IMG/VR virus record: IMGVR_UViG_2778261513_000009
Coordinates: 1-33,995 of that record
DNA from: a virus
Taxonomy: Duplodnaviria; Heunggongvirae; Uroviricota; Caudoviricetes
Length of the DNA stretch: 33,995 nt
Strand: one strand, 5' to 3'
The notes beneath the pieces were generated by a model. The model did no database searches. It was not told the DNA's origin and worked only from the letters and a program-made list of their open reading frames with translations. Position numbers and translations under genes: made by a program. Below, piece after piece: positions 1,413 to 33,995 of this stretch (its first letter is position 1; every line of letters starts with the position of its first letter).

Positions 1413-1446
1413 TACAGCTGCATTTATTAAGGTTATCATCCGTTTC

Positions 1447-1533
1447 GCTGAAAAACATAACCCATAAAATGCTAGCTGTACCAGGAACCACCTCCTTAGC
1501 CTGTGTAATCTCCCTTACGCAGGCTTATTTTTT
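1447..1533 (+). ncRNA. cyaR: CyaR (RyeE) Hfq-dependent small RNA
   Basis: Sequence gctgaaaaacataacccataaaatgctagctgtaccaggaaccacctccttagcctgtgtaatctcccttacgcaggcttatttttt matches the cyaR sequence I recall, including the terminal hairpin and U-run; sits between yegQ and ogr as expected. Confidence 0.85.
1512..1533. repeat. attL core: left copy of the 22-bp imperfect direct repeat (cccttacgcaggcttatttttt) inside the cyaR terminator
   Basis: Matches 33498-33519 (cccttacacgggcttatttttt) at 20 of 22 positions. The right copy is the reverse complement of the P2 core AAAAAATAAGCCCGTGTAAGGG as I remember it. Confidence 0.7.
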
Positions 1534-1581
1534 GTCTGTAATTCACTGAAATAAAGGGATTTATTTCTTCCAATGTCCACA

Positions 1582-1598
1582 CATTGACCACATCGATA
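1582..1598. repeat. 17-bp perfect direct repeat cattgaccacatcgata, copy 1 (inside prophage, between att core and ogr)
   Basis: Identical 17-mer at 33552-33568; similarity extends upstream (tcttcca) with an 11-bp indel. Confidence 0.6.
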
Positions 1599-1600
1599 CA

Positions 1601-1631
1601 AAAAGCCCCGCAATTGCGGGGCTTTTCTTTT
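1601..1631. terminator. Bidirectional rho-independent terminator (stem gccccgc / gcggggc) at the 3' end of ogr
   Basis: Perfect 7-bp GC-rich inverted repeat with a 4-nt loop, flanked by A-run and T-run; lies just past the ogr stop. Confidence 0.6.
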
Positions 1632-1634
1632 GGC

Positions 1635-1856
1635 TCACAGCCAGGGCATTTGATGCTGACCGGTCATCGTCGGGTGCGGTGGAGCCGGTACGACTTCCCC
1701 CGGCGAAACGATGAAACGCTCAACGGTTTCAGTCGTGACAAAAGTACAACTGCAGTTGATGTTTGTGCACTGATGATACCGCTCTTTTGTGGTGTCAGAA
1801 AAATAGCGACTCGTGCGGGCATGGGCGGCGTAATGGCATTTCGGGCAGTGAAACAT
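1635..1856 (-). CDS. ogr: Ogr zinc-finger late transcription activator
   Basis: Translation MFHCPKCHYAAHARTSRYFSDTTKERYHQCTNINCSCTFVTTETVERFIVSPGEV... shows the Cys4 zinc-finger pattern and close similarity to P2 Ogr. The ORF track begins at an upstream GTG; ATG at 1856 is taken as the start. Confidence 0.9.
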   Translation of the reverse strand: MFHCPKCHYAAHARTSRYFSDTTKERYHQCTNINCSCTFVTTETVERFIVSPGEVVPAPPHPTMTGQHQMPWL

Positions 1857-1931
1857 GATGAGCACCTCTGAGCGTTTTCAATACAGTAATTTTACTCATT
1901 TTAACCTTATAAAACAAATACATATAGTAAA

Positions 1932-3101: not shown

Positions 3102-3562
3102 CCTGCCAGCCCTCCCGCCCATTCACCGGCAGACGTGACCAGATTATCCGCCTGCGTTTTCAGGTCGCCATACATGGCCGCGAGCGACTCGTCGACGCGT
3201 TTCAGGGACAGAGTGAACTCGATTTTTCTCGCTGCACCGTCGCTGAAAAGCTCGGTGTGGTTATGAGTCACTTTATCGATAACGTACATCCCGTGGATCA
3301 TGCCGGTTCCGTCAATCAGTGGCCACGCACGCCCCTCGTCGGCCATCAGCTCAATCGCCTGCAACGACAGACGCCCGCCGGTGATTTCAGGGTAAAGCGT
3401 CCCCGACAGGGTGCGCGAGGTTTCCCCCTCCCCGAGAAACTGATAAGCCGGTCGTTTGCCGATACGGTCATTGGACACCCACCGGTAGTCCTTCGAATAC
3501 TGCATCGACTGATGCGGCAGGGTGCGCCGTTCAAACACAAAAAAGCCCAGCACCATTAACAT
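3098..3562 (-). CDS. U: Tail protein U
   Basis: 154-aa ORF between T and D, N-terminus MLMVLGFFVFERRTLP... resembles P2 gpU. Confidence 0.85.
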   Translation of the reverse strand: MLMVLGFFVFERRTLPHQSMQYSKDYRWVSNDRIGKRPAYQFLGEGETSRTLSGTLYPEITGGRLSLQAIELMADEGRAWPLIDGTGMIHGMYVIDKVTHNHTELFSDGAARKIEFTLSLKRVDESLAAMYGDLKTQADNLVTSAGEWAGGLAG

Positions 3563-23283: not shown

Positions 23284-24396
23284 TTAACCAACCCTTGCTT
23301 TTTTATATGGACCACAACTCCAACTAAAGAAATTCTTACCTAACTTATACCATTTATCAGAAAGCACTGGTGTTAGGTGAGGATTATATTTTTTTAAACT
23401 TCCCTTTTGTATATATTTCAATGTATTGCTGAGCAAATTCTCTCCAAAACCATCATAACTTACACAAGCAGTGTTGCAGCTACAGCGTTTTGAGTCGATA
23501 TACTCACAATCATATTTTATATCAAGCTTCTTTAATATCGGACGCCAATATGCACCATGTTTTCGATCGAGTTCAAGGGCTGTTTTAAAATCAAAACCTT
23601 TTTTATGGTCAATGTAAAATTTTACTGATTCATCTACGGAGCAAAGATGCTTAAAGAAAATGAGAGATTTTTCTTTTTGTTGAAATTGACTTTGACTTCT
23701 TAATACATCTTCAATTGTCGATAAAGGAACTAGAGATTCTATTTCATGTACATCTAAAATCTCAACGAAACCTGAGCGAGTGATTTGTGAGCCCAAAAAA
23801 TGTGAGCAAGTACCCCCGAATGGGGCTCTAGGATGTTTTTTGTCATTATCCACAATACAAAAAACTATCTCATTATTTTGAATTGCACGCTCGAATACAT
23901 CCTTAGTACTACCCCCACCGCCATTTAGAGCGATAAAACCCATTTCGCAGCGAGATAAGTTAATACCTTCGGCATAATGAGCCGCTATAACTCTAAAAAA
24001 ATCAGAATCCAAAGGATTTTCACATACTATTTTCGTTTTTTGCAATTGTGCCGAGTCATTAAAATACAATGGACCACAAACAAATTTAAAAGATTCACCG
24101 TTCTGAACCCATCTAAATGATTTATCACTAATATTAAAGTCGACAGTTACATAAAATGAGACCTGGTTCAAGATAGCATAGTACTCTGTTAGACCCGACA
24201 AAGCCTCTTGCGCGTAACTTTTTGATGAAAGGCTATAAAGCCCGCTTTGATCATTGATAATAGTTTTAAAAAAAACCCTTGTCCCTATAACCAAGTGTTT
24301 TTGTTCAGCAAATGCCCGAAGTATATTCTCAACCGCTATGGCAAATGAATTATTTAGCACCTGCTCAGGTGTCGCATTTTCGATATGAATCAACAT
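23284..24396 (-). CDS. 370-aa protein with Toprim-like E...DxD core (putative nuclease effector), partner of the upstream ATPase
   Basis: Start codon 2 nt after the ATPase stop. Motifs read by eye: KIVCENPLDSDFF (E126), Gly-rich LNGGGGS, IVFCIVDNDKK (D183/D185) about 57 residues after the Glu, and a Cys-rich C-terminus. The Toprim assignment is unverified. Confidence 0.7.
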   Translation of the reverse strand: MLIHIENATPEQVLNNSFAIAVENILRAFAEQKHLVIGTRVFFKTIINDQSGLYSLSSKSYAQEALSGLTEYYAILNQVSFYVTVDFNISDKSFRWVQNGESFKFVCGPLYFNDSAQLQKTKIVCENPLDSDFFRVIAAHYAEGINLSRCEMGFIALNGGGGSTKDVFERAIQNNEIVFCIVDNDKKHPRAPFGGTCSHFLGSQITRSGFVEILDVHEIESLVPLSTIEDVLRSQSQFQQKEKSLIFFKHLCSVDESVKFYIDHKKGFDFKTALELDRKHGAYWRPILKKLDIKYDCEYIDSKRCSCNTACVSYDGFGENLLSNTLKYIQKGSLKKYNPHLTPVLSDKWYKLGKNFFSWSCGPYKKARVG

Positions 24397-32303: not shown

Positions 32304-32399
32304 CAATTTACGGCGCTTTTTTGTGCAGTAAATGCACTGTGAGTTTTTGTTATTTAAATCAGGAAATTGAAGTACGCAGTAACATCATCGGGAGGCTTT

Positions 32400-33413
32400 A
32401 TGTCTGTTAAAAAGCTCGATGATGGTCGATATGAAGTGGACGTCAGACCTGCAGGGCGCAACGGAAAGCGCATCCGCAGGAAGTTCGATAAGAAAAGTGA
32501 AGCTATCGCTTTTGAAAAATATACTCAGTACAACCATCACAACAAAGATTGGTTGGCTAAACCGACAGATAAGCGGCATCTGTCAGAATTAACAAAAGTC
32601 TGGTGGGATTTGAAGGGCAAGCATGAGACTCATGGTCGAGATTATCTAGGAAAAATTGAGTTATTCACAAGGATTACAAGTGACCCATGCGCATTTCAGA
32701 TTACTAAATCATTGATTAGCCAGTACGGCACGGTGCGCCGTTCTCAGGGCATCAAACCATCGAGCATCAACCGCGATTTGACTTGCCTTAGCGGAATGTT
32801 TACCTCGTTGATAGATGCAGAGCTATTTTTCGGTGAACACCCTTTCAGAGGTGTTAAGCGACTGAAAGAGGACAAACCTGAAACTGGCTACCTCACGCAA
32901 GAGGAGATCGCTGATCTACTGTCGAAAGTCGATGGGGATAATAAGAAAATAGCGATTCTTTGTCTTAGCACCGGCGCGAGATGGAGTGAGGCTGCAAAAT
33001 TGAAAGCTGAAAACATCATCCAAAATCGCGTCACGTTCGTTAAGACAAAAACCAACAAACCGCGAACCGTTCCGATATCCGAGGAGCTGGCAACAATGAT
33101 CACATCAGGAAAGCGTGGCTATCTGTTCACGAACGCTAACTATCCTGCATTCAGACGATTAATGAAAGAGTTGAAACCGGACTTGCCACCGGGTCAGGCG
33201 ACGCACGCATTGCGTCACAGCTTTGCCACTCACTTTATGATTAACGGAGGCAGCATTATCACGCTTCAACGGATACTCGGGCACTCACGAATTGAGCAGA
33301 CAATGACCTATGCACATTTCGCCCCTGAGTACCTGCAGGACGCGGTAACGCTTAATCCTTTACGCGGTGGCACTGATGCTCTGAGTGTCCACACAATGTC
33401 CACGCTTGAATGA
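32400..33413 (+). CDS. int: Tyrosine integrase (P2 Int family)
   Basis: MSVKKLDDGRYEVDVRPAGRNGKRIRRKFDKKSEAIAFEKY... and C-terminal ...HALRHSFATHFMINGGSIITLQRILGHSRIEQTMTYAHFAPEYL match P2 Int as I recall it, including the catalytic R/H/Y region; GGGAGG ribosome-binding site. Confidence 0.9.
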   Translation: MSVKKLDDGRYEVDVRPAGRNGKRIRRKFDKKSEAIAFEKYTQYNHHNKDWLAKPTDKRHLSELTKVWWDLKGKHETHGRDYLGKIELFTRITSDPCAFQITKSLISQYGTVRRSQGIKPSSINRDLTCLSGMFTSLIDAELFFGEHPFRGVKRLKEDKPETGYLTQEEIADLLSKVDGDNKKIAILCLSTGARWSEAAKLKAENIIQNRVTFVKTKTNKPRTVPISEELATMITSGKRGYLFTNANYPAFRRLMKELKPDLPPGQATHALRHSFATHFMINGGSIITLQRILGHSRIEQTMTYAHFAPEYLQDAVTLNPLRGGTDALSVHTMSTLE

Positions 33414-33497
33414 TTTATAGTGGCTTTCAGTGGTCTTGCGTGCCGCGCAAACCCGCATTGCACCGCTGAAAGCCCCTGTTGTAGGGGTATAAAAACG

Positions 33498-33519
33498 CCC
33501 TTACACGGGCTTATTTTTT
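33498..33519. repeat. attR core: right copy of the 22-bp att core (cccttacacgggcttatttttt)
   Basis: Direct repeat of 1512-1533 with 2 mismatches; lies 85 bp past the int stop. Confidence 0.7.
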
Positions 33520-33551
33520 ATGCATAAGCCCTATCCCTGGTCACCGTCTTC

Positions 33552-33568
33552 CATTGACCACATCGATA
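33552..33568. repeat. 17-bp direct repeat cattgaccacatcgata, copy 2 (outside prophage on the yegR side)
   Basis: Identical to 1582-1598. Confidence 0.6.
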
Positions 33569-33677
33569 GAATCTCCCTTCATAGCACGATGCCTTTCACG
33601 TAACGGCATCGTGCTCGCACAGGTTCCGGCTAAGCACAACCAGAACGCGCATGTTTGACGCTTACCAAAAAATATTC

Positions 33678-33995
33678 TCACTCTCCACATTTGAATGTCA
33701 GACGAGCGACGCCATGTAATCCTGCACCTTCTGTCTTCAGGTCAACTATCTGCATTTTTTTGCCCTGAGTAACACAGAAATGGGCTGCATCATTTTTTAC
33801 TATATTTTCTGCACCAGATATTCTGCCCCTGGCTAAAGAAGCTTCGGCTTCGGTGTAGTATTGGTTATCGAGTTTACGCTGAATATTACTTTTATATGCA
33901 AGACCAAATTTACCGATACTTGTCTCATCATTATGCACAGCACAACCAGACATAATAAAAATACTAATTAATGATATAGCAGCTATCTTTTTCAT
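33678..33995 (-). CDS. yegR: Lipoprotein YegR (host gene)
   Basis: 105-aa ORF with signal peptide and lipobox (ISLISIFIMSGC); matches E. coli YegR as I recall it, and the cyaR...yegR synteny fits. Confidence 0.8.
   Translation of the reverse strand: MKKIAAISLISIFIMSGCAVHNDETSIGKFGLAYKSNIQRKLDNQYYTEAEASLARGRISGAENIVKNDAAHFCVTQGKKMQIVDLKTEGAGLHGVARLTFKCGE

Follow-up and report, generated by a model that had tools for sequence, protein, structure and literature searches.

The window analysed here (33,995 nucleotides, the whole of the stretch taken from the viral record IMGVR_UViG_2778261513_000009) carries a P2-like prophage between the host genes yegQ and yegR, and a sequence of 17 nucleotides that lies next to the attachment core inside the prophage is encountered again on the host side of the opposite junction. 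This raises the question of why a piece of a phage arm should be present in chromosomal DNA beyond the end of the prophage. A sequence-only reading of the window had regarded the outer copy as a fragment of the end of an earlier P2-like prophage, implying that the site had been used repeatedly and that an older element had decayed there before or after the present integration.

Layout of the attachment site and the resident prophage

The upstream end of the window is occupied by yegQ (1-1362), which is followed by the gene for the small RNA CyaR (RyeE) at 1445..1530 on the plus strand (Rfam RF00112, 100.2 bits, E 4e-19). The terminator of cyaR is at the same time the attachment core of P2-type phages, and a P2 prophage site at cyaR has been listed for E. 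coli W, K-12 and B in the report of the E. coli W genome (PMC3032704). The left copy of the 27-nt core, aatctcccttacGCAggcttatttttt, spans 1507..1533 on the plus strand and corresponds to the 'attP core' of 27 nt in the annotation of P2; it marks the cyaR/ogr-side junction, which is attR in the P2 convention. Past this core comes the ogr-proximal arm ('P arm') of the resident prophage, in which 1569..1596 on the plus strand corresponds to the segment that the P2 record marks as bound by Int, and which holds two arm-type repeats matching TGTGGWCA on the minus strand (tgtggaca at 1574-1581 and tgtggtca at 1585-1592). It is succeeded by the terminator hairpin of the ogr/F operon at 1600..1633, gccccgcaattgcggggc between runs of A and T, in the position homologous to the terminator of the P2 record, and by ogr itself, the late-gene activator, at 1635..1865 on the minus strand (Pfam Ogr_Delta, E 7e-20). 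Gene D and the remainder of the P2-like prophage come after ogr, and the prophage is complete from ogr to int.

At the other end, the integrase gene (32367..33413, plus strand) encodes a protein 83% identical to P2 Int; given that the alignment with P2 Int starts at residue 12 of the listed reading frame, the true start of int may lie at about 32400. The int-proximal arm ('P' arm') displays the Int repeats tgtggaca and cgtggaca on the minus strand at 33386..33403, and the homologous feature of P2 is annotated as the Int P' arm. The right core, aaacgcccttacACGggcttatttttt, at 33493..33519 on the plus strand, constitutes the int/yegR-side junction, attL in the P2 convention. A flank of 158 nt (33520-33677) separates it from yegR, a small lipoprotein-like gene on the minus strand (33678..33995). 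This is the arrangement of att core, ogr, int and yegR that the sequence-only reading had assumed, save that it had given the name attR to the int-side junction.

The left and right cores (1507-1533 and 33493-33519) are identical at 23 of 27 positions. The core beside cyaR is the phage variant (ttacGCAggc) and the one beside yegR is the usual E. coli variant (ttacACGggc), and the strands were therefore exchanged further left than these differences, in CCCTTAC or ahead of it. Lysogeny also gives the terminator stem of cyaR a different 3' half, with the G-U wobble being moved, and the phage variant of the core is identical to the cyaR terminator of Citrobacter, Klebsiella and Kosakonia. We take the attachment site at the 3' end of cyaR to be the locI of P2 genetics (reported by Barreiro and Haggard-Ljungquist 1992), for which homology that goes beyond the core may already have been described.

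A repeat shared by the phage arm and the host flank

The window contains the 17-mer, CATTGACCACATCGATA, exactly twice, both times on the plus strand (1582-1598 and 33552-33568), and no third copy is seen even when 2 mismatches are permitted. Chance would provide 0.01 matches to a 17-mer in the window, and none of 100 shuffled sequences contained two or more copies. The sequence-only reading had further claimed that the similarity extends upstream of the two 17-mers, and this too is correct: once an indel of 10 nt is permitted, both are preceded by 'cttcca'. This upstream similarity is weak in relation to the resident phage arm, and the flank (ctggtcaccgtcttccattgaccacatcga) is closer to the arm of P2 itself (ctggtcacgtccacacattgaccacatcga) than to the resident one.

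The P2 record (NC_001895) annotates a protein_bind feature for Int, the 'P arm', at 24293-24320, which reads ggtcacgtccacacattgaccacatcga in the orientation of the window, along with an IHF site, the core and the ogr terminator. The 17-mer corresponds to the distal half of this annotated Int footprint plus a few adjacent bases. It contains the arm-type Int repeat tgtggtca, followed by 'cgata', and this repeat fits the consensus tgTGGaCa reported for the Int arm repeats (PMC3448106). The pattern TGTGGWCA is found at 7 sites in the window, as against 1.6 expected, and 4 of these sit in the two phage arms and the flank.

The flank in E. coli genomes

The 158-nt flank was found in 5372 of 5426 complete E. 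coli genomes. With a synthetic query composed of the last 50 nt of cyaR and the first 50 nt of the flank, we recovered the empty-site junction, in which cyaR, the core and the flank with its 17-mer are contiguous, from 4204 E. coli genomes. Moreover, at least 28 nt of the 31-mer that surrounds the outer 17-mer (33543-33573) are exactly preserved in 5224 of the 5426 genomes. The outer copy forms part of the normal E. coli chromosome, where it flanks the P2 attachment site on the side of yegR, and it is not specific to the strain of the window. The notion of an older element peculiar to this strain falls with the empty sites that carry the 17-mer, and its time scale was wrong. Conserved host sequence with the 17-mer in empty sites is also precisely what the sequence-only reading had named as the observation that would refute it. 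An ancient relic is not thereby refuted, because every E. coli appears to be descended from the lysogen (see below), and to this extent the criterion would have led to a false negative.

A BLAST search of the flank against phage genomes, which had been suggested as a check of the relic, would mislead. Its full-length matches are limited to AY639599 ('Phage TP') and ON470606 (vB_EcoM-720R8), and we rejected them as indications of a phage sequence because both records run into host DNA: yegR is present in AY639599.1 and ON470606.1, and the latter additionally includes yegS and a gat repressor. Phage records of this kind, which contain the host flank, cause searches of host flanks against phage databases to yield false 'phage' matches. 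A match of 49 nt with 78% identity to phage 186 (E = 0.5) was taken as chance. Pairwise alignment with MAFFT also paired positions 33636-33668 of the flank with the region of the ogr stop codon (~1634-1660), and we placed no weight on it.

The more distal part of the flank (33570..33677) includes a perfect hairpin with an 11-bp stem at 33583-33615 (agcacgatgcc ... ggcatcgtgct, with a loop of 11 nt, -22.6 kcal/mol, z = -3.7). We rejected it as a terminator, for it has no T-run, and as a known RNA, for it belongs to no Rfam family. Across strains, the changes in the stem are disruptive rather than compensatory, and the loop varies.

Homology of the flank to the P arms of P2-like phages

When 12 P2-like arms and 4 E. 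coli flanks are placed in one multiple alignment, they correspond collinearly over the whole distance that begins at the core and includes the Int footprint. The homologous segment is the start of the normal E. coli flank (33520..33569, plus strand); it sets in right after the T-run of the core, on the ogr side and in the same orientation as in 11-12 phage arms, and it contains the equivalent of the Int footprint at 33539-33566. In the common type of flank, a 16-nt gap falls over the conserved block of the IHF site, tgaaataaaaggattt, and the first Int repeat is degraded from gtccaca to cgtcttc (gaagacgg on the strand of the repeats). The second Int repeat and the adjoining cgata are intact in this type and constitute the outer 17-mer, with tgtggtca at 33555-33562. 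A rarer type of flank, seen in locus L087, keeps ggattgatccc at the place where the phage arms have ggatttatttc.

Even when the 17-mer was left out, the 32-44 nt between it and the core surpassed shuffled sequences in the comparison with 11 P2-like arms, both in the common type of flank (z = 3.5, with 6 of 3000 shuffles as good) and in the L087 type (z = 3.9, with 2 of 3000 as good). This bears out the extended similarity independently of the repeat that had drawn notice to it, and, taken with the shuffles of the window, it excludes a chance match as the origin of the 17-mer. We consider it probable that 33520-33569 represents the fossil ogr-proximal arm of a much older P2-type element, which entered the chromosome of an E. 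coli ancestor at the same core. A functional arm of the P2 type is expected to have at least two direct repeats like tgTGGaCa, with an IHF site on their core side; the flank offers 1 intact repeat, and the IHF site is missing from it. Given the loss of the IHF site and of the first repeat, the fossil arm is most likely inert at present.

Fossil origin and function are compatible, and a perfect block of 17-31 nt in an otherwise decayed arm is somewhat unexpected under neutral decay. The 31 nt at 33543-33573 form the longest invariant run among 11 diverse flanks, in which 28 of 158 sites vary (P ~0.03, a value drawn from a small, non-random and phylogenetically structured sample). The preservation of this block in the 5224 genomes mentioned above points in the same direction, as does the intact tgtggtca, which fits the arm consensus (PMC3448106) and occupies a position equivalent to the footprint. 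The repeat might, going by these features of its sequence, still act as a putative binding site for the N-terminal domain of a P2-type Int, which would bias the choice of the integration site or alter excision, and the 31-nt block would then be under selection. Were this so, the attB of E. coli would not be 'core only', which would help make the cyaR locus the preferred one; the int-side junction of a lysogen would have arm-type sites on both of its sides, with a changed geometry of excision; and the near-invariance of the block within a decaying relic would be explained. We regard this as unlikely: only one of two repeats is left and the IHF site is gone, the spacing from the core is 16 nt shorter than in the phage arms, the benefit to the host from selection for a phage-binding site is not obvious, and about 150 of the genomes bearing the flank have no exact match to the block.

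The far boundary and the content of the E. coli insert

Upstream of yegS, the homology of E. coli to the spacer of the outgroup species restarts at CGACTTTCATCC. The 27 nt that end 6 nt before this point, AATCCTCCATACTTGAACTGACTTTTT, can be aligned with the attachment core, AATCTCCCTTACACGGGCTTATTTTTT, ungapped and in register, and in 11 E. coli they share 16-19 of their 27 positions with it (binomial P ~3e-5); in the K-12 locus, 18/27 to the core is reached at only 3 of 10,262 positions. The next 27 nt upstream of this decayed core match the corresponding sequence of cyaR at only 5 of 27 positions (counted by hand), and the duplication is therefore confined to the core, as in site-specific integration. 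From the end of the decayed core to yegS there are 81 nt in K-12. The insert between cyaR and the ancestral spacer measures ~0.8 kb in E. coli, and an insert bounded in this manner by a duplication of the core alone bears the signature of site-specific integration. The 125 nt that precede the decayed core are collinear with the int-side arm of P2, with a score of 15.5 as opposed to 9.8 +/- 1.5 for shuffled sequences (10 of 2000 as good, p ~0.005), a similarity of moderate significance.

The GC content is 39% in yegR and 37% from yegR to the decayed core, compared with 52-54% in the neighbouring genes. A Pfam scan of the yegR protein of the window gave no match, the family PF27694 (YegR) being precomputed on its homologues. 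These homologues are nearly restricted to E. coli and Shigella. In other bacteria, homologues with 68-82% identity are located beside a second small lipoprotein gene and the nitroreductase and ivy genes, and remoter ones (47-66% identity) occur at further unrelated loci. Neither the 17-mer nor any core-like sequence was found alongside the yegR homologues at these other loci, and hence the flank does not travel with yegR. Searches for phage relatives found no genuine phage homologue of YegR, no match of the DNA between yegR and the decayed core to phages, and no recognisable phage gene within the E. coli insert. In view of the atypical GC content of the insert and of the different and stable home that the yegR cassette has in other bacteria, we interpret yegR as cargo of the fossil element that was acquired horizontally.

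A separate observation pertains to the end of yegR. Some E. coli have ~170 extra nt before its stop codon (window ~33674), at ~1355-1528 in locus L102 and at ~3155-3328, in the host part, of locus L004 (the record ON470606.1). These nucleotides encode the first ~40 codons of the second lipoprotein gene, which in other enterobacteria is intact after yegR and adjoins the nitroreductase and ivy genes.

No direct link ties yegR to P2-like phages, and K-12 shows that partial deletions ending inside the second core have taken place at the cyaR site. Both facts would suit a history of two events, in which the yegR insert stems from some other integrative element and the arm-like 50 nt from a later P2-like prophage that was almost wholly deleted, in the manner of ogrK-yegZ in K-12 but with more decay. 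Such a history is distinctly unlikely in our estimation. One more event would have to be assumed; the arm relic directly adjoins the intact core, and no third copy of the core separates the relic from yegR; and the far end of the insert is somewhat similar to the int-side arm of P2. The single fossil element, with its arm at one end and its decayed core at the other, remains the reading that we prefer.

The cyaR locus in other Enterobacteriaceae

For comparison with outgroups, we used the region downstream of yegQ from 80 species of Enterobacteriaceae among the matches listed, a sample that is without E. fergusonii, E. marmotae, E. ruysiae and Salmonella and in which 2 species stand for Escherichia other than E. 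coli. The cyaR core is recognisable in 78 of the 80 loci among the matches listed. In 47 of these 78 species, again among the matches listed, yegS begins 73-143 nt past the cyaR core, with no flank or yegR between them; Escherichia sp. E1V33, Klebsiella, Kosakonia and Citrobacter amalonaticus are of this type. YegR is encoded at none of the 80 cyaR loci among the matches listed. When the insert-free arrangement of E1V33 (cyaR, spacer, yegS) served as a query, no E. coli genome matched it over at least 80% of its length, a result to be taken as suggestive since megablast might not extend through the divergent second half. That the insert was lost in E1V33 rather than gained in E. coli is conceivable but less likely.

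Sequences like the 17-mer are also encountered after cyaR in other genera, for instance in C. youngae (L055) and Scandinavium (L084), and these lie within the arm of a P2-like prophage, with a terminator and phage genes behind them. Arms with the full layout of Int and IHF sites occur in prophages of Citrobacter, Enterobacter, Trabulsiella, Scandinavium and others. We also noted inserts of 0.5-2.7 kb in six loci of Enterobacter and other genera (L062, L073, L067, L033, L078 and L065), bounded by a second cyaR core (16-23 of 27) whose end lies 76-81 nt before yegS, much as in K-12. In four of them the second core is fresher than in E. coli (L062, 22/27; L073, 23/27; L067, 20/27; L033, 19/27). 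The 3' end of cyaR is a recurrent hot spot of integration with fossils in many genera.

Two further loci merit separate mention. In E. albertii NBRC 107761 (L008, 4534-7100), a P2-like arm, cut off past the first Int repeat, and an IS fragment come after cyaR, and beyond them lie two ORFs that we read, from their sequence alone, as putative cdtA and cdtB; the cyaR site of E. albertii would then be occupied by a decayed P2-type element with the toxin genes cdt. The record CP169086.1 (L006), labelled Enterobacter hormaechei B17-3, combines a YegQ with 100% identity to that of E. coli (best segment) and the E. coli variant of the core with Enterobacter-like DNA downstream of cyaR and a YegS of 73% identity, and it could be a recombinant or a chimeric record.

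Repeated use of the cyaR site, as the sequence-only reading had put forward, is supported by the outgroup genomes, by the decayed second core near yegS and by the homology along the whole arm. The same three lines favour its proposal that the outer copy derives from the end of an older P2-like prophage, on condition that the relic is that of the species; as a relic at the level of the strain it is contradicted by the 5372 genomes with the flank.

The direction of the transfer could also be imagined in reverse. Aberrant excision is a known mechanism, and, with the phage arm and the flank adjoining the same core, an ancestral P2-like phage would have taken up the E. coli flank in this manner and its arm would be derived from the host. 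This is very improbable in view of the restriction of the flank to E. coli among the species listed and the presence of full Int/IHF arms in prophages of the several genera named above; furthermore, the host copy is the degenerate one, and the insert has its own second copy of the core. That the repeat, which does flank the prophage, is a recent relic of a previous prophage in the strain of the window, or a chance match, can scarcely be entertained, since 99% of E. coli carry the flank, 4204 of them at an empty site, and the shuffle tests exclude chance.

A proposed history of the locus

From the relationships of the sequences, their distribution among genomes and the boundaries of the insert, we infer the following order of events. 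The ancestral layout would have consisted of cyaR with its core, a spacer of ~80 nt and yegS. A P2-type element, probably with a yegR cassette, would have integrated here through Int-mediated recombination, and the 27-nt core would have been duplicated in the process. Deletions would subsequently have taken nearly everything and spared part of the ogr-side arm by cyaR, the cassette with yegR that had been acquired horizontally, the second core and a residue of the int-side arm. The second core would have decayed and the cyaR copy would have been kept, because only the cyaR copy was needed, as the terminator of the sRNA. The remnant would then have been fixed in E. coli. The present prophage would finally have re-integrated into the intact cyaR core, as a consequence of which the 17-mer of its arm lies 32 kb upstream of the fossil copy. 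The 'empty' attB of E. coli looks, in structural terms, like an old attR.

Three forms of the locus are observed. Strains with an empty site possess no more than the fossil; in K-12, the fossil comes after cyaR, the core, an arm, ogrK, a fragment of gene D and a partial second core; and in the window it comes after a complete prophage. The 'empty' preferred P2 site of E. coli, together with yegR, appears to have been left by a former P2-type lysogeny and to have become fixed; K-12 would hold two nested generations of remnants, and the strain of the window a live prophage over the oldest layer. There are also consequences for annotation, in that the 17-mer repeat is not to be used for delimiting the prophage or for calling a second element, 'phage' records with the cyaR flank are host-contaminated, and yegR can be handled as horizontally acquired cargo.

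Comparison with known systems

The 17-mer resembles the P-arm Int site of the P2 attP (NC_001895) in that it comprises the distal repeat of the footprint and adjacent bases, on the same side of the core and in the same orientation. The host flank departs from the P2 arm in its single intact repeat, its want of an IHF site and its position 16 nt nearer to the core, and it would qualify as a putative Int site at best.

The ogrK-yegZ region of K-12 is a cryptic P2 remnant at the cyaR site, reported by Barreiro and Haggard-Ljungquist 1992. It is like the fossil in being of P2 type, in sharing the same core and in having the ogr-side arm beside cyaR. It is unlike the fossil in that it retains ogr, part of gene D and a nearly whole arm, that its partial second core can still be recognised, and that it occurs in some strains only, whereas the fossil has no phage gene, shows decay of both the arm and the far core, and is present in essentially all E. 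coli. In K-12 the fossil lies on the downstream side of this remnant and constitutes the older of the two layers. The K-12 remnant at cyaR has been listed as 'ogr-D'' (PMC3032704).

In K-12 (L001, 2470-2500), the gene D fragment yegZ is fused to the partial second core (ctgc joined to tacacgggcttattttttt). The deletion in K-12 thus ended inside the int-side core, which suggests that it was Int-associated or core-targeted. At the position of ogrK-yegZ, E. coli HS-01 (L088, 2531-2865) has ~300 nt that are almost free of G (21 G in 335 nt) and, apart from the last ~40 nt, unrelated to the K-12 sequence; this stretch looks like an artefact of assembly or sequencing, or an odd replacement.

Integrative elements pile up at the 3' ends of tRNA, tmRNA and sRNA genes and leave degenerate att repeats behind. 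The cyaR locus is like such serial accretion in that the intact att lies in the RNA gene, decayed repeats downstream of it stand for older insertions, and the site has been reused. It is unlike the usual accretion in that its oldest layer has shrunk to ~0.8 kb, which annotations treat as normal chromosome (yegR).
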